A DNA stretch of 64,000 nucleotides from an uncultured Gammaproteobacteria bacterium (lineage in GTDB: Bacteria > Patescibacteriota > Microgenomatia > Levybacterales > GWA1-39-11). The position numbers were made by a program, and so were the translations under genes. The stretch covers positions 5,383 through 69,382 of the forward strand of contig CAYOTA010000001.1 in the NCBI GenBank assembly GCA_964406795.1, written 5' to 3'. Position 1 is the stretch's first letter. Every line of letters begins with the position of its first letter. Positions 5,988-53,864 of the stretch are shown here, piece by piece. Below the pieces are notes generated by a model that did no database searches, had not been told where the DNA came from, and was given only the letters and a program-made list of their open reading frames with translations.

Positions 5988-5989
5988 CT

Positions 5990-8249: not shown

Positions 8250-8280
8250 ATGTTAATTATACATTTTAAAAACTCTTATT

Positions 8281-13862: not shown

Positions 13863-15429
13863 TGGGTAGCCTAATTAAGTCATCTGTATCATTAAAATTT
13901 TGTGTATCAAAATAAACAGTTTCAGGATTTTCCTTCTCAGTACTTAAATTCTCTACAAACTTATATCTACCAAACTGCTTCACATATTTAAAACCTTCAT
14001 AGCTTGTTGGATAATATAAAACTTCATCTCTAAAAGTAATAGGATCATACTTATTGTAAAACAAATAATAAATATATGGAAATTCATACGGTCCTTGGAC
14101 CATAACTTTTTTATTTGGATATGTGTTTGAAATTTCAACCATTTCTTTATATCCATATCTCCAAAACTGTGCTCTATGATATGGCTGGTGAATGAAATAC
14201 AAATTCAAAAAGTATATGACATTTATAATAAATAAAATAAATAATCCGACAAAAAAGATTTTTCCAAATATATTTCTGTGTAAGTACTCAAATAGTGACC
14301 ATGCACCATATCCTGAAATAAGAGCAAAAAGCGGCATAAGCATAAACAAGCGAGTAGAATTGGGCGCATCCAAGGTTAGTGCGGAGGGAATAGGTGCAAA
14401 AAGAAGCCACACTATAAGCAAGGATATGCGCCTCTCTCTGTAATAAAAAAGAGAAACAGAACCAACAACCAATAATAACGCATCAAAAACATATAAATTT
14501 CCAAAACCATTTATATTGTGGACTAATTTTTCTCCTCCACGATCGAAAAGAAATACAGGTGAAAATGAAAGTAGATAATTTTGAAGAATCTGATAAGGTA
14601 CTCCCAAGTATTTTGTGTGTATCTTATCGAATAAAATTGGGTTTTCAATTGTATCTTTCTTAAAATTCTCCACTCTGCTGTAAATGATATCTTTGCTTGA
14701 AAATACTGTTGTAGTCGAGAATTTATTAGATCCTGCACTCAAATTAGAGTAACCTGAAATTAATAAAAGCACCCCAAACGGAACTAACAAATATGTCAAT
14801 TTCTTTCCTAGTCTCTTCCCATAAATAATGCAATATGCAAACAAAAAAAGTGGCGAAAAGATAATATATGAATGATAGGTAAAAAGCGTCAAACCAAAAA
14901 ACAGTCCAGCAATAATTGGGAAATAAATAGTATTTTTCTTATCTGTAGAATGAATAAGAAACAGCAAACCTGCTAAAAAAAGCGTTGTAGCTAGATTAAC
15001 CTCATATGCCGCTCTTGAAAAATAAATACTCCATGGAGAAACTGCAAAAAATAATGCTGCAAATAATCCTACAGCTTTTTTATTAAAAAGTCGGAATGCA
15101 ATATAGTAAATAAGTACAATTCCTACTATTCCCGCAAAAATACTAGGAATTCTTGTGGATAATTCAGAAAGACCCAGAACTGCGATTGGAAAAACTGCTA
15201 GGTATGAATAGACTGGAAGCTTCCAGTCACCGAAAGATTCAAGTGACAAAGGTAGAAATTTTCCATGTTCATCCGCACCCGTAAGCAAAATTGAGTATGC
15301 GTTGTATCCTAATGCGGCTTCGTCAATATTAAGGGCGGGGGGTAATGTGTTAAGGAATATTGTACGCAGGAAAAGACCAAGCAATACTAGTAATAAAATC
15401 GGCAAATGCGCAAAAACTCTTGATTTCAT
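13819..15429 (-). CDS. GT39/GT83 (PMT/ArnT-like) membrane glycosyltransferase, tandem paralog 3 of 3.
   Basis: 'LNIDEAALGYNAYSILLTGADEHGKFLPLSLESFGDWKLPVYSY' and the C-terminal 'YIYYLFYNKYDPITF'. Confidence 0.7.
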   Translation of the reverse strand: MKSRVFAHLPILLLVLLGLFLRTIFLNTLPPALNIDEAALGYNAYSILLTGADEHGKFLPLSLESFGDWKLPVYSYLAVFPIAVLGLSELSTRIPSIFAGIVGIVLIYYIAFRLFNKKAVGLFAALFFAVSPWSIYFSRAAYEVNLATTLFLAGLLFLIHSTDKKNTIYFPIIAGLFFGLTLFTYHSYIIFSPLFLFAYCIIYGKRLGKKLTYLLVPFGVLLLISGYSNLSAGSNKFSTTTVFSSKDIIYSRVENFKKDTIENPILFDKIHTKYLGVPYQILQNYLLSFSPVFLFDRGGEKLVHNINGFGNLYVFDALLLVVGSVSLFYYRERRISLLIVWLLFAPIPSALTLDAPNSTRLFMLMPLFALISGYGAWSLFEYLHRNIFGKIFFVGLFILFIINVIYFLNLYFIHQPYHRAQFWRYGYKEMVEISNTYPNKKVMVQGPYEFPYIYYLFYNKYDPITFRDEVLYYPTSYEGFKYVKQFGRYKFVENLSTEKENPETVYFDTQNFNDTDDLIRLPNGDPVFKYYVGKDN

Positions 15430-15481: not shown

Positions 15482-16195
15482 CTAATTAACAAATCTATAT
15501 TTAATCAAAGTCCAAAGGGCAATAGTACCATCTCGGATTGTATGAAGCTTTTTACCATCTGCATAACCGCGAGGTTTTGTTTTAATATCGACTTCATGAA
15601 TTTTTATTTTTTTCTTCAATATCTTTGCCGTTATTTCTGGCTCAAAATCAAACGAACGAGATTTTAAGCGTACTCCCTTAAGCACATCTTTATCAAATGA
15701 TTTATAGCACGTTTCCATATCTGTTATATGAGCTCCATATAAAATTGATGTAAGAAAACTTAAAAATTTATTACCAAAAAAGTGAACGAGAAGCGGCGTC
15801 CTATTTTTACCAAAGAAAACGGGTTTGGTTCTGAGACGGGTTCCATATACTACTCTGAATTTCTTTTCAACAATTGGATTAATAAGTTTAGGAATATCTT
15901 GTGGATTATATTCTAAATCAGCATCTTGAATAATAAGAATGTCACCAGATGCGGCTCGTAATCCCGTTATGACTGCTGCTCCTTTTCCTCTGTTTTTTTT
16001 ATGATCTAATACGGTAACATGTTTTTTATCTTTTTGAAATTCTTTTATTAATGAAAGCGTTCCATCTTTTGAACCATCATCAACAATTATTACCTCTTTT
16101 TCAATCTTTCCTAAATCTAAATTATCAACACGCAAGAGAAGCTCTGCTATTGTTTTTTCTTCATTATACGCAGGAATAATTATGCTTAATTTCAT
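15482..16195 (-). CDS. GT2 polyprenol-monophosphate sugar synthase (DPM1/GtrB/CsbB/ArnC-like).
   Basis: 'MKLSIIIPAYNEEKTI...VIIVDDGSKDGT', 'IIQDADLEYNPQDIPKL' and a size of 237 aa are characteristic of the Dol-P/Und-P sugar synthase subfamily of GT2. Confidence 0.8.
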   Translation of the reverse strand: MKLSIIIPAYNEEKTIAELLLRVDNLDLGKIEKEVIIVDDGSKDGTLSLIKEFQKDKKHVTVLDHKKNRGKGAAVITGLRAASGDILIIQDADLEYNPQDIPKLINPIVEKKFRVVYGTRLRTKPVFFGKNRTPLLVHFFGNKFLSFLTSILYGAHITDMETCYKSFDKDVLKGVRLKSRSFDFEPEITAKILKKKIKIHEVDIKTKPRGYADGKKLHTIRDGTIALWTLIKYRFVN

Positions 16196-16197
16196 GT

Positions 16198-17145
16198 TTA
16201 TAAATACTTTGAGAGTATCTGATCATCTGATAAAACAAACTCTTTTTTTTGTATTTTTCGATGTCTCATTATATCAGGCAGTCGAAGAATAGCAAGATAA
16301 AAACCTTTCAAAAAAACCGTATCTCTCTTTAGAATTGAGCGTAGTAAGTAGTATGGCATGTAAAAAACGTGACTTAACAATAAGTTAATATCTGTAATAT
16401 TTTTCCAGATAAATGTAAATTGATTTCGCATAGCATATGACTGAATAATTGAGTCCTTATAGTGTTTTTTAATAGAACCTTTAGAGTGAATATGCGTAAC
16501 AATACTTTTGTTTTCAAATAGTATTTTATACCCCATCTTTTGTGCTCTATACGAAAGATCTATATCTTCCCAATAGAATGGATTATATAACGAATCAAAT
16601 CCTCCTAATTTTTTGAAAATGTCGGCCCGTACCGCACTGCTGCCTCCTGACACCCAAAATGTGTTACTTCTATCAACTTCTCCTTTTCTGTGTATAAGAA
16701 ACCCTTTGTACCATCGCGCAAGTCCTCTTCCTCTCAATACCGTATTGTCTCCCTCTATACTCCTGTCCATAGCTGCCACACCAAACACTTGAGAGTCAGC
16801 AAAGTGAGACAACAGAGGTGCCAAAAAATTCTTTTCCGGAGATACATCTGTGTTTAGTAAAACAAGAATATCTGCATTTGATTTTAAAGCAGCTCGGTCA
16901 ACATTGGAGGAAAATCCTAAGTTTTTTTCATGTAACTGTAAATTAATTTTAGTTTTATATTTTTTTTGTATAAGAGGTATAAATTTTTCTAGTGCATTTT
17001 GGTCTTCTTTCTTTGACCCATCGTCTACAATAGTAAGTTGAATTTCTTTGTATGGTGCGCATGCATCCAAAACGCTTGCAAGATTTTGCTCAACCAAATC
17101 AGACCCATTATAGTTTGGGATAATAACCTCTAGTTTCATATACAT
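16198..17145 (-). CDS. GT2-family glycosyltransferase.
   Basis: 'LEVIIPNYNGSDLVEQNLASVL...TIVDDGSKKED...VLLNTDV' GT-A fold signature. 315 aa. Confidence 0.75.
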   Translation of the reverse strand: MYMKLEVIIPNYNGSDLVEQNLASVLDACAPYKEIQLTIVDDGSKKEDQNALEKFIPLIQKKYKTKINLQLHEKNLGFSSNVDRAALKSNADILVLLNTDVSPEKNFLAPLLSHFADSQVFGVAAMDRSIEGDNTVLRGRGLARWYKGFLIHRKGEVDRSNTFWVSGGSSAVRADIFKKLGGFDSLYNPFYWEDIDLSYRAQKMGYKILFENKSIVTHIHSKGSIKKHYKDSIIQSYAMRNQFTFIWKNITDINLLLSHVFYMPYYLLRSILKRDTVFLKGFYLAILRLPDIMRHRKIQKKEFVLSDDQILSKYL

Positions 17146-19392
17146 TTATAACAAGCTCGCCGTCATAGTAACAGTGTGTTTACCGGCAGGTACTTTTATT
17201 CCCCTAAATGCTATATTAATAGGAACAATTTCTGCCTCTTTCCCATCAATTGTAGCACGGAAAGAAGGATAATACACATCAGTCAGAATAAGAAATCCAA
17301 CTCCTTTATTTACTGTTTCTATCTCAACTTTGCTTGAAGTATACTTTGCAATTCTTGCAGTTCCAGATGAGTATTTTCCAACAGCTTCTTTATTTAATGC
17401 GACTGCCACGTTTTCTAAACTAACTTTTTGTATTAACTTTGCTGCCTCTTGTTCATCCTTGACCACTATTATTTCGCTTATAAAATACGCTCTTGGTAAA
17501 ACATTATTATTTTTGTAAATTTTTGTAATCCCTTCCTCGTATACTTTTTGCAATTTTTGACTTTTAATCTCGTCGATAGATAATACATATTTAACATTTA
17601 AGAAATCTAAGATTTCTGAATTTATATTCCGTGGCCTGATTGTTCTATTAAATCCGAATGGTTCATCTATAGAACTATCTGAACGCTCGTTTGAAGCAAT
17701 TAATTTTCCATAGTTCTTTACAAATAGGGGATCGTATCCTTCTATGGATTGTATTCTGTAAGCTGATGAAAAATTTGGAATAAGAATCCTGTCGTCAGTA
17801 GTTGCAATTCTAAATATGGTTTTATCATTTTGTAAAAATTTTGTAATGCTTGTTTCCGGGTATAAGTACTCTTGACTTACAAATGGTGTATATTTCCAAG
17901 CAAACCTAATTAAATCAAGTGCAGTAAAAGCAAGAATTAAATAAATTAAAATGAAAGTATATTTTTTCTGCACTTTACAATATAGAAAGGCCATAGCAGA
18001 GATCAAAACAAATATAAATGTTGGGAGCTTTAAATTGTTCCTGGATATTAGGGCATCTTGAGCTGTGGGATAAAGTTGAATCCATAAATAACTTGCAAGC
18101 CATAGAGTAATAAATAATACTGTAGTAACCGCAACGGGAATTATAATTCTAGACTTTTTTTTCATGAAATGATCGAATCCTAAAGCGGACAGTACACTTA
18201 ATGAAAAGGAAATTAAGACCAGCAGCCGGGTAGGCTGCGCCGTTGAGATAAATGGAATTTTTAATTGAAACGGGAGTAAAGATATTGGGTTTTGCAAAAC
18301 AAATATAAAACAAAAAATGAGTGTGATTAAATAAAATAAAGTTTTTTTATCCCGTCTAAATAGTAATGCATATAAAGCGAATAATAACCCTCCAATGCCA
18401 ATGTAGCCCACAAATTCTCCATAATGAAATACGCCATAATAATTAAGAGTGGAAGGGTTTCCAAAGAAGTCAGGGGACACAAATTGTATTAAGTTCTGAA
18501 ACGGAATGAACCATCCCTCTATAAGATATGACTGATCATTAGATCTTCCGGATAAATCTATAAACTGAAGTGTTGGTGCCCACTGAACTGATGTAACAGT
18601 AATAGACAAAATGACAACAGTTAAGAATGGTAATAATTTTGAAAACTTTCTACCATATGTAAACCACAATGCAAACATATAAATAATTACAAAAAATATA
18701 ACATAAAAGAACGATTGAAGATGGCCTGCAAAAAATGAACTACATATGGAAAAAAGTAGGACAAAAAACCAAATTAATTCCTTATTCTTTCCTGTACTTT
18801 CAAGAATCCTTTTGACTGCAATTAACATAAGTGGCAGCCACAAAACTGTATGCCCTATATTGCCCCACTCCAACCATGATATAAAGAACCCTGAGAAAAT
18901 CCATGAAACAGTACCTAAAACGACTGCAGGAGGTGATAAGCCCAAACTTTTTAAATAAAAATACATGAAAATTCCGCCCAACACCATTTGAAGCATAATA
19001 AAAATAGACCAGGATATAGAAAATGGATTTATGAACAATAAAATGTTTAAAGGATAAAACACACCAGACTGAAAATTAGCTAATAACGGTTTTCCAGACA
19101 TTTCATAAATATTCCAGATAGGAATATAGCCACTTTTTAATGACTCTATTGCTAATTCTTTCCATATGTATTGCTGCCTAACTGGATCTGTAATAATGAA
19201 ATTTTTATAAGGAATTCCATTTGGGTAATCATTTACATAAAGATCTCTAAATGGATGATATAGGCCTACGATCGTATCTGCAGGAATTGGTAATTTTCCA
19301 TATAACAAAAATGGGTAAAAAAACAATACTACTAAAAAAAGAACAAGACCTAAATAAAGTGAATCCTTTCGTTTTAAAAAATTTTTTATCAT
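17146..19392 (-). CDS. YfhO-family GT-C membrane glycosyltransferase-like protein, paralog 1 of 3.
   Basis: 748 aa. Carries 'GYIPIWNIYEMSGKPLLANFQSGVFYPLN' near the N-terminus and 'TDVYYPSFRATIDGKEAEIVPINIAFRGIKVP' near the C-terminus; both are shared with 22304.. and 37054... Multi-TM protein with a C-terminal extracytoplasmic domain, as in Bacillus YfhO. Confidence 0.6.
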   Translation of the reverse strand: MIKNFLKRKDSLYLGLVLFLVVLFFYPFLLYGKLPIPADTIVGLYHPFRDLYVNDYPNGIPYKNFIITDPVRQQYIWKELAIESLKSGYIPIWNIYEMSGKPLLANFQSGVFYPLNILLFINPFSISWSIFIMLQMVLGGIFMYFYLKSLGLSPPAVVLGTVSWIFSGFFISWLEWGNIGHTVLWLPLMLIAVKRILESTGKNKELIWFFVLLFSICSSFFAGHLQSFFYVIFFVIIYMFALWFTYGRKFSKLLPFLTVVILSITVTSVQWAPTLQFIDLSGRSNDQSYLIEGWFIPFQNLIQFVSPDFFGNPSTLNYYGVFHYGEFVGYIGIGGLLFALYALLFRRDKKTLFYLITLIFCFIFVLQNPISLLPFQLKIPFISTAQPTRLLVLISFSLSVLSALGFDHFMKKKSRIIIPVAVTTVLFITLWLASYLWIQLYPTAQDALISRNNLKLPTFIFVLISAMAFLYCKVQKKYTFILIYLILAFTALDLIRFAWKYTPFVSQEYLYPETSITKFLQNDKTIFRIATTDDRILIPNFSSAYRIQSIEGYDPLFVKNYGKLIASNERSDSSIDEPFGFNRTIRPRNINSEILDFLNVKYVLSIDEIKSQKLQKVYEEGITKIYKNNNVLPRAYFISEIIVVKDEQEAAKLIQKVSLENVAVALNKEAVGKYSSGTARIAKYTSSKVEIETVNKGVGFLILTDVYYPSFRATIDGKEAEIVPINIAFRGIKVPAGKHTVTMTASLL

Positions 19393-20465
19393 ATCATGGT
19401 TAATTCACTTAATTGTTTTTCAAAATTCTTTAATGAAAAAAATTCTGCGCGTTTTATTGCATTTTTGGACTGACTACGTAACTCAACTTTGGAATTTATT
19501 AATATAAGTGTTACTTCAATTAGCTCTGCTATAGTATTCCAAAGTAAACCATCTACCCCATCCGTTACTATCTCTCTCTGTCCTCCTGCATTAATTACAA
19601 CAGGGACTGCCCCCGCACCCATTGCCTCCACTGTAGATATACCAAAGTGTTCAGCTAATTCTGGGTTCGCATCAAGATCTTCCCCAAAACCCGACGCATG
19701 CCAATATATTTTTGCAAGTGAATAAAGTTCCCACAAATCTTTATTTGATTTATTAATTTCAAATTCAACTGGATATTTCTCAGCTATTTTTTTTAGTTTT
19801 TCAAATTCAACCTCATCTTCTTTTTTTACACTTATGGCCATAATTAGCTTCCATTTTAAAAGCCCCTGATCAATCATTTGTTTAAATGCATTTACCATCA
19901 TATGCTGCTTCTTAAAGTCAGAGGCATTACCAACTGTTTTATCCATTACTCTAAAACGCCCCACATGAAGTATGACATTTTCTTTCTTTTCTTTTTTAGC
20001 ATGCAACTCTACGGGAGGATACAAAACATGTGTTGATACTCCAAATGTTTTATCAATATAATTCTTTGTATATTTAGAATTACAAAAAATTTTATTCACC
20101 CTCTTTAGCTTTAATCTGTCAATAAATGAAAGTCTTACATTTGGCAATGGACGCTGAACATGCATAAATAACTGTGAGGATACGATAGGTATACTCCCAT
20201 CACTTAAAAAGATGATTGCATCATATCTTTGAGTAGTCTTTAGTTTTGAGAACAGAGAAGATTTAGGGGTGAAAATATTAGGCACACAAGAAATCCGCTT
20301 CAGGTCTAATGAAAATCGTATGCCCACTGCGTCTAGATCTGCTGGATTATCCCAAAACACATCTACTTTATACTTTTTGGATAATACCTGAGCCATGGTG
20401 ATCATGTATTTTTCTCCCCCACCACAGTCATCAAGATATGGGTCATAAATTCCGATTTTTTTCAT
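19389..20465 (-). CDS. GT4-like (GT-B fold) glycosyltransferase.
   Basis: C-terminal 'ISTVEAMGAGAVPVVINAGGQREIVTDGVDGLLW' donor-binding block typical of GT4. ATGA overlap with the upstream YfhO-like gene. Confidence 0.6.
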   Translation of the reverse strand: MKKIGIYDPYLDDCGGGEKYMITMAQVLSKKYKVDVFWDNPADLDAVGIRFSLDLKRISCVPNIFTPKSSLFSKLKTTQRYDAIIFLSDGSIPIVSSQLFMHVQRPLPNVRLSFIDRLKLKRVNKIFCNSKYTKNYIDKTFGVSTHVLYPPVELHAKKEKKENVILHVGRFRVMDKTVGNASDFKKQHMMVNAFKQMIDQGLLKWKLIMAISVKKEDEVEFEKLKKIAEKYPVEFEINKSNKDLWELYSLAKIYWHASGFGEDLDANPELAEHFGISTVEAMGAGAVPVVINAGGQREIVTDGVDGLLWNTIAELIEVTLILINSKVELRSQSKNAIKRAEFFSLKNFEKQLSELTMI

Positions 20466-20519
20466 AAACTAATTCTTATTCTATCAACTCTTGAATCCTA
20501 AAAAAAGCTGTGATAAAGT

Positions 20520-20771
20520 ATGCATATGCAACTCGACAGCTTTATACCTATAAATCACCCCATATTTGTATTTTTTATACTTTTCTGGTCAATTTTCTGG
20601 AAAGGCATTGCATTGTGGCGATCAGCACAAAATCACCAGAGAAACTGGTTTTTAGTTATCCTCATTATATCTTCAATGGGCATTATTGAAATCATTTACC
20701 TTTTTAGATTCGCAAAAAAGCGACTAACCTTGCAGGAAATGAAGAGATGGATTCGGCCTAGTACTAACTAA
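20520..20771 (+). CDS. Small membrane protein (83 aa), hypothetical.
   Basis: Two predicted TM helices. It is the only plus-strand ORF inside the glycosylation array and occupies an otherwise non-coding gap. Could be spurious. Confidence 0.3.
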   Translation: MHMQLDSFIPINHPIFVFFILFWSIFWKGIALWRSAQNHQRNWFLVILIISSMGIIEIIYLFRFAKKRLTLQEMKRWIRPSTN

Positions 20772-20772
20772 A

Positions 20773-20967
20773 TTAGCCCAAAAGCGCAAGTAAGCCTAAC
20801 ACAACAAAAGCTATACCAATATAACGCGTGTATTTATAGGTTAACTTACTAACCGTTATCTTTGCACCCATTTTAGAAGCTAACTTAATTTTTGCATCTA
20901 GTGCACTTTTTGGATTAATAACCATCCAAATACCTAGAATAAAAATCAATATCATAAGTAATCCCAT
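20773..20967 (-). CDS. Small 2-TM membrane protein (64 aa), hypothetical.
   Basis: 'MGLLMILIFILGIWMVINP...IGIAFVVLGLLALLG' gives two hydrophobic helices. Sits in a 1.1-kb stretch of small genes between the glycosyltransferase blocks. Confidence 0.35.
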   Translation of the reverse strand: MGLLMILIFILGIWMVINPKSALDAKIKLASKMGAKITVSKLTYKYTRYIGIAFVVLGLLALLG

Positions 20968-20974
20968 ATATTAT

Positions 20975-21526
20975 TCACCTCCCCCCATTTAATAAATTCT
21001 GAAAATTAACATTCAAGTCTTCAAAAACAATATCCTGGGGGTGAATAAGTAAGTTATCAGGGATTTTCTGTGTTACACACTCTGGGGCACTTTCTTCTAT
21101 CTGTCTTTTTATCATGTTTTCACTAATAAAGTTTTTGGCAATTGGATTTTTTTCTATATCTACTTTCATACCTTTCTTTTCTCCCGATTTCCAAATATAG
21201 GCTATCTTTCCATCAAACAAGACGTTGCCATATTGCCCACCTTCTTCTTCAGTCAATCTTAATACTCCATTCTTTATTAACACTTCCCCCTTTAAATCGT
21301 CTGTCAAAAGAGTACACTTAACGCTCCCCTTCCCACTGTATGCTTCCAGTACTAATTGAGCAGATGAAGTTAGTGATTGTTTATTTTCTAGAGAATTTGT
21401 AGACGAGACGGGAACCAGAAAATAAAGACAAATTGCGGTTAAACCGGCAAGGATTACACCAAGCAAAATGATACGTCTGTAATTTATTAAAAAGATTTTT
21501 ACTTTTTTCTCCATAACTGACCTCAT
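20975..21526 (-). CDS. N-terminally anchored hypothetical protein (183 aa).
   Basis: Single TM helix 'IILLGVILAGLTAICLYFLVPV' followed by a soluble domain. No recognised motif. Confidence 0.4.
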   Translation of the reverse strand: MRSVMEKKVKIFLINYRRIILLGVILAGLTAICLYFLVPVSSTNSLENKQSLTSSAQLVLEAYSGKGSVKCTLLTDDLKGEVLIKNGVLRLTEEEGGQYGNVLFDGKIAYIWKSGEKKGMKVDIEKNPIAKNFISENMIKRQIEESAPECVTQKIPDNLLIHPQDIVFEDLNVNFQNLLNGGR

Positions 21527-21557
21527 TGACTAATCGTACGGAGTATAACAGGATAAA

Positions 21558-22307
21558 TCAAGTCTTTCTATTTTGAAGCTCCCAAAGCTTGGCATATGTT
21601 ATAAACGCTGAGTATGATTGATATATGGACTCAATTAAACCATATGTGCCGTTTTTATATCCCTTTTGAGTAACGTATGATTTCAAAAATTCAGTAATCA
21701 TAACACGTGGAAAACGCCACCACGTCATACGAGGATGATGTGCTTTTATTCGTAATTCTGCCTCATACTTAGACCACTTATTGGTTTTTATGATCATCTG
21801 CTGCATGTTTCTGTGAGTAAAGTGATTAATGGGGGCATTTATGCGTTCAAATTGACCATCTACCGTAGGTGATTCGTGCACTATGCCATACCACTCTTTT
21901 AGCTTTTTTTTATAAAATAGCCTCTGTACAGAATCCGTTAATCCCCAATCTTTGCCAAAATAGAATGTTTTTCTTTTTATAAAGTATCCAGCAATATGAG
22001 ATAGGGGATTATATGCGCTTATAGTACCCAATGCTTCTTTCTTAAACTCCTCTGTTAGTCGCTCATCAGCATCAAGATAAAATATAAAGTCTCCCTTTGC
22101 ATACTTTGCTCCCAGGTTTCTTTGTTCAGCAAAAGAGGAAAGCTCATGTTCAAAAACCCGAGCTTTATACTTTTTAGCAATTGGTTGAGTCTTGTCTGTG
22201 GACTTTGAATCGATAATTATAATTTCATCAGCAAATCCAGACAAGGACTTTAAAGAATCTTCCAAAACCTCTTCTTCGTTATATGTAATAATAATTGCTG
22301 AAATCAT
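21558..22307 (-). CDS. GT2-family glycosyltransferase (paralog of 7473.. and 27232..).
   Basis: 'MISAIIITYNEEEVLEDSLKSLSGFADEIIIIDSKSTDKT' and the DXD motif 'YLDADERL'. The start was moved to the internal ATG at 22305-22307; this gives a 4-nt ATGA overlap with the upstream YfhO-like stop and removes an 11-aa leader (the track start was 22340). Confidence 0.75.
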   Translation of the reverse strand: MISAIIITYNEEEVLEDSLKSLSGFADEIIIIDSKSTDKTQPIAKKYKARVFEHELSSFAEQRNLGAKYAKGDFIFYLDADERLTEEFKKEALGTISAYNPLSHIAGYFIKRKTFYFGKDWGLTDSVQRLFYKKKLKEWYGIVHESPTVDGQFERINAPINHFTHRNMQQMIIKTNKWSKYEAELRIKAHHPRMTWWRFPRVMITEFLKSYVTQKGYKNGTYGLIESIYQSYSAFITYAKLWELQNRKT

Positions 22308-24676
22308 TTTATTTTTTTCTTTTTGCGCAACAAGAAGCACAAAATCACTATTCCTACTATACCAATTATAGCAGCGTACACTCCATAGCGAAAACTAATA
22401 GGATCATAAATAAAAGTAATTCTATTCGATTGGTCAGGAACAAACACGCCCCTAAATGCAAAATTTGTGCGATATATTTCTAATTCATATGGAATACCGT
22501 GCTCACCGTATACGTAAGCCTTCCAACCCGGATAGTAGACATCTGTTAAGACCAATAAAGATGCGCTATCCCGGCAAAAAACTGGAGGAACATTTGTCTG
22601 TATCTCAATTCTGTTTGGCGAGTATGACAAAATATTAGCGCTTCCAGACGCAAATTTTGTTGTATAAGTATGCTTTTTTTCAATAAATGCTGTGGTTTTT
22701 AGGTCTGTTTTTTTATCAAACATGACATTGAGAATCTTTTGTGGGTCAGACTCAATAATCACATTGTCTACCATAAATGCCCTGGGATAAGCGTTTGTGT
22801 TTTCTAAGATTTGATACTTCCCGTCATCAAACCGTAGCTTTACGGTTTTAGGGTCATATTGCCAAAAAGGAAACTCCCACACATTTTGCCCATCACTTAC
22901 TTTATGTACAAAATACTTTATACCAAGCAAGTTAGCGGCTGGTAAAAGATTTTTTGAAGCAAGCGGTATGTCAACCCCTGACCTGGCTGAATCTTGAAGA
23001 TTACCTGAATCAAGGGACGCAATAAATTGTCCAAAGCGCCTTATGTAAACCGCATCATATCCTTCTAGCATAGGTAGACCATAATACACAGACCCTTCTG
23101 CACCAAAATTTGCAAATACGCGATCATATCCGGATATTTTTTTAAATTCTTTTGTCACACCTACCTCAGGATACGCAAGAGAAATTGGCTCAAAAGGAAT
23201 CCATTTATTCACAAAGCGAAGCATATCAAATGCAATAATGATGATAAGTAGTATTGGAAAAACAAACAATAGACGTTTTCTTAAAGTGACGTGAAAAAGC
23301 AATATTACCAAAAATGCACCAAAAATAGTTGTTGGGAGACGAAGGTTAGATTTAGCAATACTAATTTTTTCAGAATCAAGCACAAAACCTCCTAAAAGCG
23401 CTCCCCACAACAAAGCAAAAATTCCAATAAAAATGAACATCTCTGTATATATTCTTTTTTTATTTTTATGTAAAAGATCTTTTAGTAAAAAGTCATACCC
23501 AAAACCTGCAAGTACTGCCAGAGAAAATGATGTGAGTATAATAATCCTACTTAAAGCGCTTGTGGATAAGACAGGAATTTTACTAGCTACTAATAAATCG
23601 AGTAATGGAGATTGAAAAGCACATAGAAGTGTTATGATTGCGGCCAACGAGAAAAACAAAATATACTTTTTCTTTATATAAAACATAGAATAAAATCCCA
23701 AGAATAAAGGCACTAGTCCTATGTATAAATTCCACTCTGCATAATGACCAAACCACGCATTTCTGGTAACAGGGTTCCCATAAAAATCTGGAGCAATGCC
23801 TGTCACAATATATGCCCACGGAATAACTTCAATTTTTTGAAAGAGAGTACTTCTAAAACTTTGAAGATATAACTCTACTGATGGGAATAATTGAGGTGCA
23901 CATAAAAGTAAACCGCAAAAAATAGTAAACGAAAGCTGAACAAAACATAATATTTTCTTTGTCGATACACATTTATATATACTGTATGCAAAAATGAAAA
24001 TCAGAAAATACAAACTCATTTGAAAATGCCCGCTAAAGAAAGATAATGGAATTGTTGCAGCCACAAGAATTAAATACCGAACGCCTCTATTTTCAAAATA
24101 TTTTTCAATTGCATATAACGTAAGTGGTATATACAAAATTGCGTAGGCGAGTGTACCATATGCCATCCATGACGTAATAAATCCACAAAACATAAATGAT
24201 AAAGATGAAATAATTGAACCTACTTTACCTACTTTTACTGACCGCATATAAAAATACATAAATAAACCTGCAAAAAGCGGTTGAAGGAGAATTAACATGC
24301 TCCACCAATTAATGAACGGGAATATAAAAAACCCAATATTAAGAGGAGATAATACTGCCGATTGGTAATTTGCTAAATGGGGAGTACCGCCAAAACTATA
24401 AGGATTCCATAGGGGAATTATTAAGTTCTTCCATGATTCAATACTAAAATATCTCCACGGATATATTTGACCAATGATATCAGGCATCGACTCATTTTTG
24501 ACAGGCGTAAAAAGCTCAGGATACGCACTCCATGGAGCAAAAAATGCTACTTGATAGTCTGATGGGAAAGGAATTAGCCCAAGTAAAAATGCAGGAAAAG
24601 CAAATAGCAGCCACACGGTAAAAATGACTACTCCAGGAAAAAACCTGGTTGTATGAATTTTTTTTATTTTCTCCAT
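22304..24676 (-). CDS. YfhO-family GT-C membrane protein, paralog 2 of 3.
   Basis: About 790 aa. Carries 'LIIPLWNPYSFGGTPHLANYQSAVLSPLN' and the C-terminal 'TDVYYPGWKAYVYGEHGIPYELEIYRTNFAFRGVFVP'. The track start was 24718; the internal ATG at 24676 (MEKIKKIH...) is more likely and shortens the overlap with 24664... Confidence 0.6.
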   Translation of the reverse strand: MEKIKKIHTTRFFPGVVIFTVWLLFAFPAFLLGLIPFPSDYQVAFFAPWSAYPELFTPVKNESMPDIIGQIYPWRYFSIESWKNLIIPLWNPYSFGGTPHLANYQSAVLSPLNIGFFIFPFINWWSMLILLQPLFAGLFMYFYMRSVKVGKVGSIISSLSFMFCGFITSWMAYGTLAYAILYIPLTLYAIEKYFENRGVRYLILVAATIPLSFFSGHFQMSLYFLIFIFAYSIYKCVSTKKILCFVQLSFTIFCGLLLCAPQLFPSVELYLQSFRSTLFQKIEVIPWAYIVTGIAPDFYGNPVTRNAWFGHYAEWNLYIGLVPLFLGFYSMFYIKKKYILFFSLAAIITLLCAFQSPLLDLLVASKIPVLSTSALSRIIILTSFSLAVLAGFGYDFLLKDLLHKNKKRIYTEMFIFIGIFALLWGALLGGFVLDSEKISIAKSNLRLPTTIFGAFLVILLFHVTLRKRLLFVFPILLIIIIAFDMLRFVNKWIPFEPISLAYPEVGVTKEFKKISGYDRVFANFGAEGSVYYGLPMLEGYDAVYIRRFGQFIASLDSGNLQDSARSGVDIPLASKNLLPAANLLGIKYFVHKVSDGQNVWEFPFWQYDPKTVKLRFDDGKYQILENTNAYPRAFMVDNVIIESDPQKILNVMFDKKTDLKTTAFIEKKHTYTTKFASGSANILSYSPNRIEIQTNVPPVFCRDSASLLVLTDVYYPGWKAYVYGEHGIPYELEIYRTNFAFRGVFVPDQSNRITFIYDPISFRYGVYAAIIGIVGIVILCFLLRKKKKIK

Positions 24677-26316
24677 TTTATTAAAATTATAATAATTGAA
24701 TATACTAGCAACACACACAAAGACACAATACTTATAGTATTTGAAAGCATACGTAATTTCGTGTCTTCAAATTTTAGGTCAATTTTATTTTTTCCTTGAG
24801 AAAGATAATAGGTAATAAGTCCACGATTTGCCTGGTCTTGAAACTCAATAGGAGTTTCTTTTCCGTTTACATACACCTTCCAGTTAGGAAAATATAATGT
24901 GTTTTCGCGTATACGTGCTTTTGGCGATTCAACTATAACATTGTATGATTTGTGATCAGTGCCATTTGATATATACTGAATTTTTCCGTTCCCATCAATT
25001 ACTTCAACTGGTGCCTTGGCTGGTCTCTCCATGAATCTAACTGACCAAATTGGCGCACTCTCACCAGTGTCTGTTGTTCCCCTGTACATAGTTGTAAAGA
25101 ATGTCTCTGGTTTTAAAAGATATCCATTTACTTGAGTGTAGTAAGGTATATAAAGCAGCATAGCAAGCAAACATATACCTACGCAGAATATATTAAGATT
25201 CCTTTTATTTTTAATATATAAGGCAGGTAATGAAGCAAGAAACGCTGACAAGAAAACAGCAACTGATAAAAATCTCCACGGGAACTGAAACTTCTGAAGT
25301 ATTGATAGTTCATTCCAGATATAATTAGAAGCTTCAAGCATCATAAAAAGTGTTCCTGCAAGAGAGATAAAAAATAAAATCGCTGTAAAACGAATGACAC
25401 CTTTTGCACGACGAACATAAAAAAGAGCCAATAACATACCTACTAGCTGCACTATCCCAATCTGTTTTGATAATAGATCTGTACCACCAAAGCTCCATCC
25501 TAAACTCACATAATCTTTCAACTCAACAAACCTGTCTTTATATTCTCCACTCCCTGTGACAATATCCCGAAGTGTGTATTTACCTTCTAAAAAAGCCGGC
25601 AATAAAAAGAACGATGAAAGACCAAGCCCGATTCCAATAAAGAAAATGTAATTAATACCCAACAAAACCTTTTTTTTTGTAAAGTATATATGAATTGCAA
25701 CATATGCTAATATTAACGGCAAAAACATTATGCTTATGGCATTATGAGACAATATGAGGCCCGCTATAGAAAAAGAAAGCAGTACAGAAAAAAGGCTATT
25801 ATTTTTCGCATTCGCTATTTTATATATAGAATAAAACACAAGCGGAACAAAAATAAATGCTGCATGCTCTCCTATGGCACCTCTGACATACAGGTCAACA
25901 AACCTGTATGGAGCATACATATACAGCACGCCCGCAACTATGGCACATTTTTCTCCGCATAAATTTCTAACCCAGAGATACATAAATACTCCGCTTAAAA
26001 TAAAAGATAATCCAAATACCATCTTCACTGAATCAACGAAAGAAAAACCGAAAACATGAATAAGGGATGCAAGGTAGGAAGGAAACGGATACAGAAACAT
26101 AAGAATTGGATGACCATAACCCCAATTTAAATTAGCGGCCCATCGTGGAACTAGATTTCCTTCAGAAAGACTAGCGTAAAAATTGGCTATACGAGCCACA
26201 TGATCCTGTCCATCATGTGTCATAGGAAGCCCGCTATGCAAAAGAGGGAAAAGAGGAATAAGTCCTAGAATGATGATTAAAATAAATCCAAAATAACGTT
26301 TTATAAATTGATTCAT
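24664..26316 (-). CDS. GT-C-like membrane protein, family A, paralog 2 of 4.
   Basis: 'LPMTHDGQDHVARI...WGYGHPILMFLYPFPSYLASL' and the C-terminal 'LYFPNWKVYVNGKETPIEF'. 550 aa. Confidence 0.55.
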   Translation of the reverse strand: MNQFIKRYFGFILIIILGLIPLFPLLHSGLPMTHDGQDHVARIANFYASLSEGNLVPRWAANLNWGYGHPILMFLYPFPSYLASLIHVFGFSFVDSVKMVFGLSFILSGVFMYLWVRNLCGEKCAIVAGVLYMYAPYRFVDLYVRGAIGEHAAFIFVPLVFYSIYKIANAKNNSLFSVLLSFSIAGLILSHNAISIMFLPLILAYVAIHIYFTKKKVLLGINYIFFIGIGLGLSSFFLLPAFLEGKYTLRDIVTGSGEYKDRFVELKDYVSLGWSFGGTDLLSKQIGIVQLVGMLLALFYVRRAKGVIRFTAILFFISLAGTLFMMLEASNYIWNELSILQKFQFPWRFLSVAVFLSAFLASLPALYIKNKRNLNIFCVGICLLAMLLYIPYYTQVNGYLLKPETFFTTMYRGTTDTGESAPIWSVRFMERPAKAPVEVIDGNGKIQYISNGTDHKSYNVIVESPKARIRENTLYFPNWKVYVNGKETPIEFQDQANRGLITYYLSQGKNKIDLKFEDTKLRMLSNTISIVSLCVLLVYSIIIILIKWRK

Positions 26317-26317
26317 A

Positions 26318-27235
26318 TTATAGGAGAGGATATGTACCTTTTCCTAATCTGCGAAAATAGTAATCTAATACACCTTTTTTTTGCCATTTCCTTCCTCTTA
26401 CTAAAAATCTCATGCTCTCTCGAAATAGAGCAATTCTTGTCCTGAAGGAAGCATATTTCATGCCAAAAAGGAGCCTATTACGCGTAATGTAATAATCATG
26501 AAGCGGAGAACCCGATCCACCTGTAGACCCCGCATTCTTATGATAAATAATAGATTTTGGAGCCAGAATTAACTTAAACTTTTGCTCGTGCATTCTCATT
26601 ACTAAATCAGCATCTTCATAGTATAGAAAGTATTCATCATGAAACCCTTTTATTTTTTCAAAAACTTCCCGTGTCGCAATAAAGCATGCTCCAGTTATAA
26701 AGTCTATATCGACTTGCTTGTCATACTGTCCACGGTCAACCTCATCCACTCCCCTATGATGACCTATTATATTTGCCCAGTCCATCTCTGCCCCCGCAAA
26801 CCAAAAGACCTTTCCTAAGTCTTCCTTTTTGTACCTGTCCTTATGAAATTCATATCCTTTTTCAAAATATATTTTTGGGCATGCCACATCTGCTTTGTGA
26901 TCCCTCAGGGCTTCTATGAGATTTAGTATAAATGACCGATTAAGCACAGTATCATTATTTAAAACAATAATATATGCTGCGCCATTTTTCAGTGCGTATT
27001 CTATACCAGTATTATTTCCGCCTGAATAACCAGTATTAACTTTATTCTCCAATAAAATAACATCCGGAAATTCTTTCTTAAACAATTCGATAGAATTGTC
27101 ATGCGACGCATTATCAACTATTACGGGTACTACTTCACATCCTTGGGGTGTGCGCACTTTTTTGAGTGAATTGATGCATTCAAAAGTGTTTTTAGCACCA
27201 TTAAAGTTAAGAACTATTACAAAGATTTTTTTCAC
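26318..27235 (-). CDS. GT2-family glycosyltransferase (rhamnosyl/galactofuranosyl-transferase-like subgroup).
   Basis: 'IFVIVLNFNGAKNTFECINSL...VIVDNASHDNS...IIVLNNDTVL' GT-A signature. 305 aa. Confidence 0.75.
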   Translation of the reverse strand: MKKIFVIVLNFNGAKNTFECINSLKKVRTPQGCEVVPVIVDNASHDNSIELFKKEFPDVILLENKVNTGYSGGNNTGIEYALKNGAAYIIVLNNDTVLNRSFILNLIEALRDHKADVACPKIYFEKGYEFHKDRYKKEDLGKVFWFAGAEMDWANIIGHHRGVDEVDRGQYDKQVDIDFITGACFIATREVFEKIKGFHDEYFLYYEDADLVMRMHEQKFKLILAPKSIIYHKNAGSTGGSGSPLHDYYITRNRLLFGMKYASFRTRIALFRESMRFLVRGRKWQKKGVLDYYFRRLGKGTYPLL

Positions 27236-28143
27236 AGATTATTTGTTTTTTTAGAGATCATATATAGCAACTTTTTAAATGGGTTTCGTGCTTCATGCTG
27301 TAAAGCTGTAAATAGCCAAAACTTACCTTGATTTTCTATACACATCATCTCCGCTGAAATCCCTTTGAGTAGTTCCTTTTCAGACTTTTCATAAAAACCT
27401 TGCTTTTCCCATACTTTGGCAAACAAAAGAAACATATAAAAAGCCTGAAGTGTGGAAAGTACTAAACCATGCAACCCATCCCGATATCCTTTTTGAAGAA
27501 AAAAAGTTTTAAAAAAATCAGAAAATGGAAGCTGGACTGCGTCAATCCACATAAATTTTTTTCCTGATTTTATTATTTCTTCTACTTCTACATCCGTATA
27601 GATATTGTTCATTCGGTTAACATATTGAGAAATGCTAGTGTAACTGTGATGCACCATAGGTTCTGATAAATGTCTTATTTCTCCTGAAACGCTAATTGGA
27701 ACATGCACTGTTGCCTTTAAAAATTTTCCCTTGCCTTTTTTAAACAATCTTAACTGATAGTCTGGCCACCACAATGAATGTCTAATCCATTTATTAAATA
27801 TGATATTTTTACGAGGGATCAAAAATCCTGAAACCTTAGGATGTTTTTCAATTTCATGCTTAATTTCCGTTATGAGTTTTGGTGTCAATCTCTCATCTGC
27901 ATCTAGTGATAGTATCCACTCATTTGACGCTTTTTCAAAACCATAATTTTTCTGCAGATCTATTTTTTGAGGATCATTGGCTTGCTTAAAAACCTTAACT
28001 CCCATTTTTTTGGCAATTTCTCCAGTTTTATCTGTTGAGGAGTTATCCACTACTATAATTTCAGAGGCAAAGTCTTGTAGGCTTTCAAGACACTCTTTAA
28101 TATTTTTTTCTTCGTTATATGCTGAGATTACTATACTTACCAT
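27232..28143 (-). CDS. GT2-family glycosyltransferase (paralog of 7473.. and 21558..).
   Basis: 'MVSIVISAYNEEKNIKECLESLQDFASEIIVVDNSSTDKT', DXD 'LSLDADERL' and 'FLIPRKNIIFNKW'. The start was moved to the ATG at 28141-28143, 1 nt downstream of the flippase stop; the track ORF started at 28227 with a 28-aa leader lacking the GT2 N-terminus. Confidence 0.75.
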   Translation of the reverse strand: MVSIVISAYNEEKNIKECLESLQDFASEIIVVDNSSTDKTGEIAKKMGVKVFKQANDPQKIDLQKNYGFEKASNEWILSLDADERLTPKLITEIKHEIEKHPKVSGFLIPRKNIIFNKWIRHSLWWPDYQLRLFKKGKGKFLKATVHVPISVSGEIRHLSEPMVHHSYTSISQYVNRMNNIYTDVEVEEIIKSGKKFMWIDAVQLPFSDFFKTFFLQKGYRDGLHGLVLSTLQAFYMFLLFAKVWEKQGFYEKSEKELLKGISAEMMCIENQGKFWLFTALQHEARNPFKKLLYMISKKTNNL

Positions 28144-28144
28144 A

Positions 28145-29620
28145 TTACTTTTCCCTTCTAATGCTTGATAATAGAAAGCTTGCAGTTTTATGAATTTCTG
28201 AACGCGCAAGAACATAAAGCATAACAAAATATACTAGCGTTGAAAAGATAACCTCAAATATAAAAAACAGTAATGTTGTGGAAAACCCTTGTATCAAAAA
28301 CACACTAGCTCCCATGACAATTGATGCGAACACCGCCGGATATACTGGTTTTATAACTGAAAAATTTACTGACTTTCTGGCTACGAAAAACACCAATACG
28401 GATGATAGAGAAATAAGAAGTGACGCAAAACCTACACCATTATACCCATACCAAAAAATAAATAGCGGAGTGATTGTCCATGTTAAAATCGTCCACATTA
28501 CCATAAAATAAAGAGTTATTCTTACTTTCCCAATAGCATTTAATATATTTGTAAGTGGTGTTGAGAGTGATGACAAAACCGTACTTGCCGCAAAGAACAT
28601 TAAAAGCATAATTGCCGGCTCCCATTTTTGATATCGCGGAATAAATGAAACTAAAGGTGGAGCAAAAAATATGATTCCTACTACTGTTGGAAAGATGCAA
28701 ACAGAAATCAAAAAAAGTGTTTTTTCTATCGCTTTTTTTAACCCTTCTTTATCATGTTGCAGTCTACTAAATGATGGAAATGTGATTTTAATAACATTAT
28801 CCATAAATAGTCGCATGGGAAGAAATGCCCACTTTTGTCCAAAACCTATATACCCTACTTGGGCTAGGGGTAATACCTTTGCCAAATACACATTAAAAAG
28901 GTCATCTTTTACTAAGGCTAGCAAACTATTTGCTTGAAATGGTACGCCAAAGGATAAGAGTCTTTTTAAAGTTGGAGTGTGCAAAGCTAAACCGATTGGC
29001 CATCTTTGAATCCAATATATAACAATAAGCCCAAGTATGCTTCTTGCCAATACTGCAATTGTAAAACTATATATCCCAAACCCTGATATTGCAAATACGA
29101 TAAGACACACGTTATATGCCAGGTTCTCAACGATTTGTGGCACAACTAACTTATGGAAATTTAAGCTTCTCTCAAGTAAAACCGTTGGGATAGTTTTTAG
29201 TGATGACGCAACAAACGAAAAAAGAAGCGCGTATAAAAGCACAAGACCAGCACTATCTATTTTATAAAAATTTGCAATTTGTGAAGCAAAAATTGTAACG
29301 GGAATTGTAACAGCTAAAACAAGTATTTGTTGTATTGTAAAAGTACTTCTGAGCTCAAGAGTAGTCGGTTCTTCTTTTTTTTGAATTAAACTTGCGGCCA
29401 AACCTATATCTTGGAAGTAATTAAGAAATACAACAACTGCGGATACGACAAAGAACACCCCAAAAGCTTCAGGACTCAAATAAAGCGTTAAAACAAAGCT
29501 GGCAATTACGGAAATTATTTGTATTATAAATGTACGGGAAACAAGCGCGAATAATCCTTTTACAGATTTTCGGGCAATCTCTTCAAATTGAGGAAGTGGT
29601 ACTATGTCAGCATCTTGCAT
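28145..29620 (-). CDS. Wzx-like polysaccharide / oligosaccharide flippase (MOP superfamily).
   Basis: 491 aa with about 12-14 TM helices. The overall architecture and the 'polysaccharide biosynthesis protein' N-terminal block 'LFALVSRTFIIQIISVIASFVLTLYLSPEAFGVFFVVSAVVVFLNYFQDIGL' fit O-unit flippases. Confidence 0.65.
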   Translation of the reverse strand: MQDADIVPLPQFEEIARKSVKGLFALVSRTFIIQIISVIASFVLTLYLSPEAFGVFFVVSAVVVFLNYFQDIGLAASLIQKKEEPTTLELRSTFTIQQILVLAVTIPVTIFASQIANFYKIDSAGLVLLYALLFSFVASSLKTIPTVLLERSLNFHKLVVPQIVENLAYNVCLIVFAISGFGIYSFTIAVLARSILGLIVIYWIQRWPIGLALHTPTLKRLLSFGVPFQANSLLALVKDDLFNVYLAKVLPLAQVGYIGFGQKWAFLPMRLFMDNVIKITFPSFSRLQHDKEGLKKAIEKTLFLISVCIFPTVVGIIFFAPPLVSFIPRYQKWEPAIMLLMFFAASTVLSSLSTPLTNILNAIGKVRITLYFMVMWTILTWTITPLFIFWYGYNGVGFASLLISLSSVLVFFVARKSVNFSVIKPVYPAVFASIVMGASVFLIQGFSTTLLFFIFEVIFSTLVYFVMLYVLARSEIHKTASFLLSSIRREK

Positions 29621-29630
29621 GAAAATAAAT

Positions 29631-32065: not shown

Positions 32066-32085
32066 ATAATATTTTACTAGTTGCG

Positions 32086-35404: not shown

Positions 35405-35417
35405 TATTATTATGTTG

Positions 35418-48542: not shown

Positions 48543-48609
48543 TTCAGGGTAGAAGGTACCGCAGAAAGACCACGAAGTCCAGTAGGAAAATGGCTTAAAT
48601 GCTTTAACT

Positions 48610-48810
48610 TTATACCTGCTTTTTCTCTTTTCTATCCTTCCACCACACAAAACCTGCAACGACTAATAAGACAATACCAAACAAACTATGCGCCAAATGA
48701 TTAACGCCAAGTCCAATTGCCTCGTGATTTAGAGGTAAGGGATATCTGTGATCGAGTAAGAAATAAAGGCCTGCAATAATTAAAATTATAATGGTAAAAT
48801 GCTTCATCAT
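48610..48810 (-). CDS. Small membrane protein (66 aa), hypothetical.
   Basis: 'MMKHFTIIILIIAGLYFLLDHRY...IVLLVVAGFVWW' gives two hydrophobic helices. Located between the recombinase and the HxlR gene. Coding status uncertain. Confidence 0.3.
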   Translation of the reverse strand: MMKHFTIIILIIAGLYFLLDHRYPLPLNHEAIGLGVNHLAHSLFGIVLLVVAGFVWWKDRKEKKQV

Positions 48811-53858: not shown

Positions 53859-53864
53859 ATTTAA

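Follow-up and report, generated by a model that had tools for sequence, protein, structure and literature searches.

A conserved gene cluster of Levybacteria with anchor-less synthase-like GT2s, a Wzx-type flippase and YfhO-family GT-C proteins, a probable cell-surface glycosylation locus

Two variants of glycosylation by polyprenyl-linked single sugars are known in the closest described systems. In variant (a), a membrane-anchored GT-A glycosyltransferase (GT) acts together with a GtrA-type flippase and a GT-C enzyme, as in CsbB-GtcA-YfhO, and in variant (b), a cytoplasmic GT-A enzyme acts with a separate membrane protein, a Wzx-type flippase and a GT-C enzyme, as in GacI-GacJ-GacK-GacL; combinations of the two were predicted to be possible (PMC8035078). 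The documented acceptors of YfhO-family enzymes are of two classes, namely teichoic acids (PMC8035078) and the Ser/Thr-rich disordered regions of membrane-associated proteins, which are modified by PgtC2 and PgfM1 in streptococci (PMC12041528). Cell-surface glycosylation of the candidate phyla radiation (CPR)/Patescibacteria is essentially unexplored according to a study on Saccharibacteria (bioRxiv 10.1101/2024.11.25.624915), and our literature search found no paper linking YfhO to CPR bacteria. Here we analyzed a stretch of 64,000 nucleotides (hereafter the window; positions 5,383 to 69,382 of contig CAYOTA010000001.1, assembly GCA_964406795.1), which harbors three YfhO-family genes and three genes for short GT2 proteins. 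The names carried by close homologues place the source, an uncultivated ultra-small bacterium, with the Levybacteria-type Patescibacteria (CPR). With a probability of roughly 60%, a large locus for glycosylation of the cell surface, based on lipid-linked single sugars and GT-C transfer, has its conserved core in the region around the first two YfhO genes.

A previous sequence-only reading had described positions 15482-27235 as repeated GT2-YfhO modules resembling the CsbB-YfhO system of teichoic-acid glycosylation. These coordinates covered only the core of a single 46-kb glycosylation cluster, a run of minus-strand genes extending from about 404 to 46819 among the open reading frames (ORFs) of the window and including at least 16 recognizable GT-C genes (Table 1). 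The inventory was based on Pfam and NCBIfam scans of the window ORFs together with all-against-all BLAST of the window proteins. The family and fold assignments, the lack of transmembrane (TM) helices in the synthase-like proteins and the conserved gene linkage were the direct observations on this cluster.

The real signal of the locus was the conserved linkage. A scan at one genome per species yielded 452 relatives, and gene order was counted in the best 80 loci, all of Levybacteria type (Patescibacteria/CPR) and with YfhO proteins 45-54% identical, after classification of their ORFs by BLAST against the window proteins. The upstream neighbor of the YfhO1 orthologue was the GT4 gene in 80/80 loci, its downstream neighbor (+1) was the gene for the 315-aa-type GT2 in 73 of the 76, and the 15482-type synthase gene came next, second downstream of YfhO1, in 68-69 of the 73. 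The genes three or more positions away from the YfhO1 orthologue varied. The 15482-type synthase showed 60-91% identity among the relatives, far above that of the YfhO1 protein (45-63%), and PMT_2-type genes commonly came after it. Upstream of this unit were the genes for YfhO2, a GmaR/SunS-like GT2, a PTPS_related GT-C, the 305-aa GT2, a further GT2, Wzx and the second synthase. The YfhO2 orthologue lay one or two genes upstream of GT4 in most genomes, the two cytoplasmic GT2 genes of 26318..28227 were kept between the Wzx and GT-C genes, and a synthase gene immediately preceded Wzx in 47 of the 48 loci holding a full-length Wzx. A closer contig (YfhO 57% identical) showed an identical order of 11 genes. 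These results suggested two conserved units, synthase-Wzx-GT2-GT2-GT-C-YfhO2-GT2 and GT4-YfhO1-GT2-synthase-PMT_2 and beyond, split by a divergent DUF5652 gene, and hence a functional organization not in GT2-YfhO pairs but in these two units. The synthase-Wzx pair (28145-30341) was as tightly conserved as the YfhO unit.

The three short GT2s had been regarded as DPM1/GtrB-like from the sequence, and this assignment to the polyprenyl-phosphate synthase type was borne out by profile and PDB classification, with which one fold model agreed. The proteins showed 27-30% mutual identity, and the top PDB matches of all three were PfDPMS (5mlz), ArnC (9bhc, 8vxh, 9hwj) and GtrB (5ekp). A family profile built from 51 members aligned with positions 1-215 of PfDPMS 5mlz (E=7e-34) and 2-215 of ArnC, and it covered the whole catalytic domain only in PfDPMS, ArnC and GtrB (E=7e-34 to 1e-25); the other GT2s matched it solely in the nucleotide-binding half, over the first ~110 residues (~175 in one weak match). 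Full-length alignments to NCBIfam models were obtained for the short GT2s only with AglJ, PpgS, ArnC and Dol-P hexose transferase, all below the equivalog cut-offs. The AlphaFold2 (AF2) model of the 237-aa protein (pLDDT 84, pTM 0.83) gave 24 top Foldseek matches that were all ArnC, DPMS or GtrB (TMq 0.62-0.78), and the best match to each of the three reached a TM score of 0.75-0.78 over ~237 columns, nearly the entire query. D91-x-D93 (DxD) and D159 were invariant in the family alignment. These features point to synthase-like proteins, presumptive polyprenyl-phosphate sugar synthases of the DPMS/ArnC/GtrB type, with fold support for one of them. A scan for hydrophobic segments found none in the three proteins, which end just past the catalytic domain (236-255 aa), and none of them carries the C-terminal TM anchor of GtrB, ArnC, CsbB and PfDPMS. 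DPM1 and PpgS are synthases without a TM helix. As the short GT2s also lack TM helices, they were likened to this anchor-less subgroup, to which GacI belongs as well. GacI has been described as an anchor-less GT-A synthase (PMC8035078).

The three YfhO-like genes proved to be real, all on the minus strand and with scores exceeding the PF09586 cut-off of 28.5 bits (93, 52 and 125 bits). The second gene, previously placed at 22304-24676, stood as a gene but its end did not, as the coding region starts from a GTG at 24718 and 24676 is an internal ATG. YfhO2 was 30% identical to YfhO1 across 770 aa, and the YfhO proteins contained 11-14 hydrophobic segments. Membership of these 750-800 aa proteins in the YfhO family, as proposed before, agreed with both the PF09586 matches and the structure model of YfhO1. 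In this AF2 model (pLDDT 89, pTM 0.89), ~500 residues formed a helical membrane domain and residues 600-748 a C-terminal domain rich in beta structure, and the best Foldseek matches of the model were the GT-C proteins ArnT, AftD, STT3/PglB and EmbC; a sequence search of the PDB with YfhO gave no match. D39 in the motif P-I-P-x-D-T was invariant in the loop following TM1, and D50 and D69 in the same loop were nearly invariant. The first loop after TM1 is the site of the catalytic acid in GT-C enzymes (PMC8035078), and the D39 loop of YfhO1 would face the outside of the membrane. The YfhO-type proteins are thus GT-C proteins by family and, for YfhO1, by modeled fold, and are predicted to be transferases, for which the linkage to the synthase gene makes a polyprenyl-phosphate monosaccharide a candidate donor.

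From these assignments, the following pathway can be proposed. The three soluble GT2s of the DPMS/ArnC/GtrB kind would each load one nucleotide-derived sugar on polyprenyl phosphate at the inner membrane face. The lipid-linked sugar would then be flipped outward, and the best candidate for the flippase is the Wzx-family protein, whose gene comes right behind that of one synthase. Finally, polytopic GT-C proteins (the three of YfhO type and those of PTPS_related, PMT_2 and GT87 types) would transfer the sugar to an extracytoplasmic acceptor. Wzx, the two GT4s and the five non-synthase GT2s are probably the machinery for assembling an oligosaccharide on a lipid, and this glycan of the cluster itself is probably also the most economical acceptor or scaffold; teichoic acid or surface proteins could serve as the acceptor as well. 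What we infer in this scheme is the nature of the lipid carrier, sugars and acceptor, the flipping step and any involvement of the DUF5652 protein. The general mechanism put forward in the sequence-only reading, from cytoplasmic GT2s through polyprenyl-phosphate monosaccharides to YfhO-type GT-C proteins outside, was supported by the synthase and GT-C assignments and by the YfhO-synthase linkage (68-69/73). That reading had also recognized no GtrA-like gene, and indeed none was found among the window ORFs scanned with PF04138. Its Wzx-like protein was confirmed as a member of Polysacc_synt_3 (E=3e-50), and the idea that Wzx stands in for GtrA gained support from the synthase gene directly upstream of Wzx in 47/48 genomes.

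The claim of repeated GT2-YfhO modules did not survive. A GT2 gene had been placed immediately upstream of each YfhO gene; since the genes are all on the minus strand, the adjoining GT2 genes at lower coordinates (16198-17145 and 21558-22340) are downstream, and they adjoin only two of the three YfhO genes. The two GT2s were mutually unrelated apart from the common fold. GT2 16198 gave full-length NCBIfam alignments to EpsD/MftF/PgaC-type models and no meaningful match in the PDB by sequence; the closest PDB relatives of GT2 21558 were GmaR (E=3e-16) and SunS, and all-against-all BLAST identified it as a paralogue of 27232 and 7473. When the order of the 38 cluster genes, eight of which were GT2, was shuffled, two GT2-YfhO adjacencies appeared in 11% of the shuffles. 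A DNA repeat search of the whole cluster detected only short motif-coding stretches common to the PMT_2 paralogues, and recent duplication of modules was ruled out by the missing DNA-level repeats. The apparent modules are ancient paralogues with non-homologous GT2 neighbors. The only repeat at the DNA level was a 79-nt segment, 62-75% shared by four PMT_2 paralogues (12003-12081, 13651-13729, 15251-15329 and 35223-35301), which, as read from the sequence, encodes the conserved N-terminal loop motif W-D-E...G-Y-N-A-Y-S...T-G-K-D-E-Y-G, the likely catalytic loop.

Several points weigh against the proposed locus. The GT2-YfhO adjacency inside the window was not beyond chance (p≈0.11), and both GT2s touching YfhO genes are of non-synthase subfamilies. 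The window scans found no GtrA (PF04138), priming phosphoglycosyltransferase, Wzy, LCP ligase or recognizable acceptor gene. Wzx may serve the oligosaccharide pathway alone, its usual role. The synteny was sampled within one lineage, and shared ancestry therefore explains part of the conservation.

In 65/65 loci having the interval upstream of GT4, this interval held a DUF5652 gene next to GT4 and divergent from it. The small membrane protein formerly seen at 20520-20967 was in fact two ORFs; a single unrecognized protein was not found there, while a small membrane protein indeed was, the DUF5652 protein of 20520-20771. The ORFs at 20773..21526 were poorly conserved, and most relatives had ~300 bp there with DUF5652 alone. 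A scan of 77 loci anchored on DUF5652 showed that the closer relatives keep the context, and ~25 loci were without any cluster homologue; in the five of these with long flanks whose neighbors were checked, the neighbors were unrelated (MgsA, a deacetylase, penicillin-binding protein/Mur ligase). Given such unrelated contexts of the distant members, the view that DUF5652 generally partners glycosylation loci found no support outside the lineage, and the association is real in the Levybacteria-type lineage but not general. The DUF5652 protein might be a partner of the anchor-less synthases, a speculative role.

Among other explanations, protein O-glycosylation of the Pgf or GtrB-PgtC2 type, in which YfhO-type enzymes modify Ser/Thr-rich surface, membrane-anchored, pilin or S-layer proteins, is possible, with perhaps one chance in a handful. 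As YfhO-family enzymes include documented protein O-glycosyltransferases, with PgtC2 and PgfM1 of streptococci as precedent (PMC12041528), teichoic acid is not the sole candidate acceptor. PgfS was the top NCBIfam match for two of the synthases and the second for the third, and the C-terminal 70 aa of YfhO3 matched PgfM1/PgfM2; GalE is encoded in the cluster like PgfE in the pgf operon, and the O-glycosylation flippase was the second-best NCBIfam match of Wzx, after the MOP flippase and before TuaB, all below the cut-offs. On account of these weak PgfS and PgfM1/M2 matches, GalE and the abundance of PMT_2/PMT-type proteins, protein glycosylation must be taken seriously as an alternative. The NCBIfam scores were, however, far below the cut-offs (68-82 vs 500 bits for PgfS; 25-29 bits vs 1400-1500 for PgfM1/PgfM2), a search of the cluster for Ser/Thr-rich acceptors gave none convincing, and the five cytoplasmic GTs with Wzx suggest oligosaccharide assembly as well. 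The only clear Ser/Thr-rich linker in the window was that of a DUF4352 protein 10 kb away. This protein (56234-56788, minus strand) carries the linker (GSGSKKVGSNSDTTATKTTT) following its N-terminal anchor, a segment of the kind modified by YfhO-type protein glycosyltransferases in streptococci.

A mycobacteria-like assembly line, in which the GT-C array polymerizes a lipoglycan or wall polysaccharide (like phosphatidylinositol mannoside (PIM), lipomannan and lipoarabinomannan, or arabinogalactan) outside the membrane from polyprenyl-phosphate sugars, is quite unlikely. The presence of at least 16 GT-C genes and three donor synthases in one cluster would suit it, as would the GT87 and MptA/MptB-like matches and the occurrence of AftD and EmbC among the fold matches; a Saccharibacteria genome paper took dolichol-phosphate-mannose synthases and GT87 as a PIM-like pathway (PMC6031116). 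The scores were weak (26 bits for GT87; 58 bits vs a cut-off of 439 for MptA), the window scans turned up neither PimA-type nor inositol or decaprenyl-phosphoarabinose genes, and the number of transferases alone does not demonstrate polymerization.

The glycosylation of lipoteichoic or wall teichoic acid by a CsbB-GtcA-YfhO-type system, as proposed in the sequence-only reading, is improbable. The YfhO-family membership stands, and a synthase is linked to YfhO as csbB and yfhO are neighbors in B. subtilis (Table 1 of PMC8035078). The synthases, however, are without the C-terminal TM helices of CsbB/GtrB, neither GtrA/GtcA nor LtaS-, TagF-, TagO- or Dlt-type genes were found in the 64-kb window, and the literature search found no paper tying teichoic acids or YfhO to CPR bacteria. 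The specific teichoic-acid analogy had no support beyond family membership. It is very improbable that the genes are mere neighbors inherited by descent in a GT-rich region with no specific GT2-YfhO pairing, as the four-gene core and the synthase-Wzx pair are fixed while genes at least three positions off vary, at 45-54% protein identity, and the genes overlap or abut like an operon, although chance could account for the adjacency in the window, the comparison genomes are all from one lineage and the DUF5652 association vanishes in distant members.

Within the cluster, genes follow one another without a gap or share a few bases with the next. A promoter/terminator scan of 13-31 kb gave the same counts as in shuffled sequence, so that operon boundaries could not be drawn. 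The plus strand interrupts the cluster only with the DUF5652 gene and a UPF0176/rhodanese-family gene (43991-44929), a housekeeping-type, unrelated gene that is the sole large plus-strand gene within it. Two polytopic proteins on the minus strand were not classified: the 602-aa protein with 13 TM (3073-4881), for which Pfam and NCBIfam scans gave no match, and the 375-aa protein with 9 TM (40910-42037), for which Pfam, NCBIfam and PDB searches as well as profile-profile comparison with YfhO were empty. The 375-aa family has an invariant Asp within an I-P-D-E-T-like loop after TM1 and was found beside YfhO2 in some relatives. Both proteins may be unrecognized GT-C or Wzy-like enzymes.

Table 1. 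Genes and gene groups of the glycosylation cluster, in window positions.
Feature	Position	Strand	Basis or remark
GT4	404, 19389	-	two genes
Distal cluster part	404..8916	-	GT4, PTPS_related GT-C, 13-TM protein, GT87-like, DUF5667, GalE, GT2, S-adenosylmethionine (SAM) methyltransferase
PTPS_related-type GT-C (family B)	1449, 24664, 30347, 32086	-	four genes; Pfam/BLAST
GT87-like	4878, 42034	-	two genes; 42034 = GT87/MptA-like, 387 aa
GalE	6505	-	377 bits vs cut-off 262
Other GT2	7473, 16198, 21558, 26318, 27232	-	five genes; non-synthase type
SAM methyltransferase	8281	-	
PMT_2-type GT-C, looser	8998, 39411, 44919	-	three genes; Pfam/BLAST
PMT_2-type GT-C, downstream of first synthase	8998..15429	-	four genes
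PMT_2-type GT-C, closely related (family A)	10505, 12195, 13819, 33731, 35418	-	five genes; Pfam/BLAST
Short GT2	15482, 29631, 43201	-	three genes; synthase-like
Synthase-like GT2, 237 aa, no TM helix	15482..16195	-	PF00535 E=7e-39; last gene of GT4-YfhO-GT2-synthase unit
Cytoplasmic GT2, 315 aa, directly downstream of YfhO1, non-synthase type	16198..17145	-	PF00535/PF13641
YfhO-family GT-C	17146, 22304, 37054	-	three genes; PF09586; ~30% mutual identity
YfhO1, 748 aa	17146..19392	-	PF09586 93 bits
GT4 (GT-B fold), first gene of conserved unit	19389..20465	-	PF00534/PF13439; overlaps YfhO1 start by 4 bp
DUF5652, 83 aa, two TM, divergent from GT4	20520..20771	+	PF18893 E=9e-22
64-aa two-TM ORF	20773-20967	-	no significant Pfam match
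183-aa N-terminally anchored protein	20975-21526	-	no significant Pfam match
GT2, 260 aa, GmaR/SunS-like subfamily, downstream of YfhO2, non-synthase type	21558..22340	-	PF00535
YfhO2, 804 aa from GTG start	22304..24718	-	PF09586 52 bits
GT-C-like membrane protein, 550 aa, PTPS_related/YfhO-like, family B	24664..26316	-	PF10131 52 bits; PF09586 37 bits
Two cytoplasmic GT2	26318..28227	-	305 aa rhamnosyltransferase-like; 331 aa GmaR/SunS-like subfamily
Wzx/MOP-family flippase, 491 aa	28145..29620	-	PF13440 (Polysacc_synt_3) E=3e-50
Second synthase-like GT2 (upstream neighbor of Wzx), 236 aa, no TM helix	29631..30341	-	ArnC 4-210 E=2e-17; PfDPMS 6-208
Four GT-C	30347..37079	-	two family B (PTPS_related), two family A (PMT_2)
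YfhO3, 784 aa, PMT_2-type GT-C genes both sides, no adjoining GT2	37054..39408	-	PF09586 125 bits
PMT_2-like GT-C 514 aa; unclassified 9-TM protein 375 aa; GT87/MptA-like GT-C 387 aa	39411..43197	-	
Third synthase-like GT2, 255 aa, no TM helix	43201..43968	-	PfDPMS 1-174 E=5e-15, then ArnC, GtrB
PMT_2-like GT-C 525 aa and 107-aa two-TM protein, upstream cluster end	44919..46819	-	

Outside the cluster, a large serine recombinase gene (47211-48659) directly follows, and the segment 56800-64000 encodes a helix-turn-helix regulator, a terminase-small-like 143-aa protein beside a 507-aa ORF, a ParB-N6/N4 methylase, an Alw26I-type restriction endonuclease and a C5 cytosine methylase; the recombinase and these genes suggest a mobile or restriction-modification region. 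The GC content was 0.36-0.41 at 46-60 kb and ~0.35 by 62-64 kb, compared with ~0.34 in the cluster. A MacB-type ABC efflux set on the minus strand (51932-55193; FtsX/MacB permease, ABC ATPase, HlyD-like adaptor and MarR regulator) is unrelated to the locus described here. The title "uncultured Gammaproteobacteria bacterium" is attached to many related public genomes despite Levybacteria gene content and closest relatives, and such titles look like placeholders.

The family of every part and the overall logic are known. Novelty lies in the joining of Wzx with an anchor-less synthase and a YfhO-type GT-C, strictly conserved in one lineage, in the number of GT-C proteins encoded by so small a genome (related Levybacteria chromosomes are ~0.8-1.1 Mb) and in the host lineage, for which the literature search found no description. 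As minimal genomes and contact dependence are here combined with a conserved, large investment in extracytoplasmic glycosylation, the surface structure should be central to the biology of these bacteria. We would go further only as a conjecture, more likely wrong than right by a wide measure, that Levybacteria devote ~4-6% of the genome to a glycan assembly line outside the membrane, with at least 16 GT-C proteins, three anchor-less synthases and Wzx, producing a complex surface polymer undescribed in CPR, and with DUF5652 as a small GacJ- or DPM3-like partner of the synthases. If so, the way in which these episymbionts appear to hosts and phages could depend chiefly on this polymer. The conserved four-gene unit is ~5 kb long.

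Regarding the known systems, the eukaryotic DPM1-DPM2-DPM3 synthase has a catalytic subunit of ~240-260 aa without a TM helix, which depends on small partners with two TM. The short GT2s resemble this subunit in size and in the lack of TM helices, whereas the host is of another domain of life and a DPM2/DPM3-like partner role of DUF5652 is speculation. The mycobacterial system, with Ppm1/PpgS feeding PimE/GT87, MptA/B, Emb and Aft, shares large GT-C sets, GT87/MptA-like and AftD/Emb-like similarities and short TM-less synthases such as PpgS; the similarities are distant, however, neither lipoglycan-anchor nor arabinose-donor genes were seen, and the genes here form one contiguous cluster.

The Pgf (PgfS-PgfM1-PgfE-PgfM2) and GtrB-PgtC2 systems (PMC5856776, PMC12041528) have in common with this locus several YfhO-type paralogues with a GT-A synthase and an epimerase, extracytoplasmic transfer and the weak matches to the PgfS and PgfM1/M2 models. 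In contrast, a gene for an adhesin or a Ser/Thr-rich substrate was not found in the cluster, the scores were far under the equivalog cut-offs, and many extra GT-C families and Wzx are present here. The CsbB-GtcA-YfhO systems of Bacillus, Listeria and Staphylococcus also contain a YfhO-family GT-C, with a nearby synthase-type GT2 and the same three-step logic. They differ in that the synthases here are without TM helices, GtrA/GtcA was not found in the window, genes for teichoic acid are absent from the vicinity and the GT2 touching YfhO belongs to another subfamily. The locus is thus not a strict CsbB-GtcA-YfhO system.

Compared with GacI/J/K/L, the linked GT-C is of YfhO type here and of PMT_2 type in GacL, although PMT_2 genes are abundant in the cluster; a homologue of GacJ was not identified, and three synthases with at least 16 GT-C proteins in a CPR host correspond to one of each. 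Common to both are the anchor-less cytoplasmic GT-A synthase, the adjoining Wzx-type flippase, the extracytoplasmic GT-C and the setting in a polysaccharide locus. The cytoplasmic GT-A synthase, the Wzx-type flippase and the GT-C are encoded together, as in variant (b). The locus thus fits variant (b) by its synthase and flippase and variant (a) by its YfhO transferase, and is an instance in nature of the mixed type foreseen by workers on Gram-positive bacteria, with an anchor-less synthase, Wzx and a YfhO-type GT-C.

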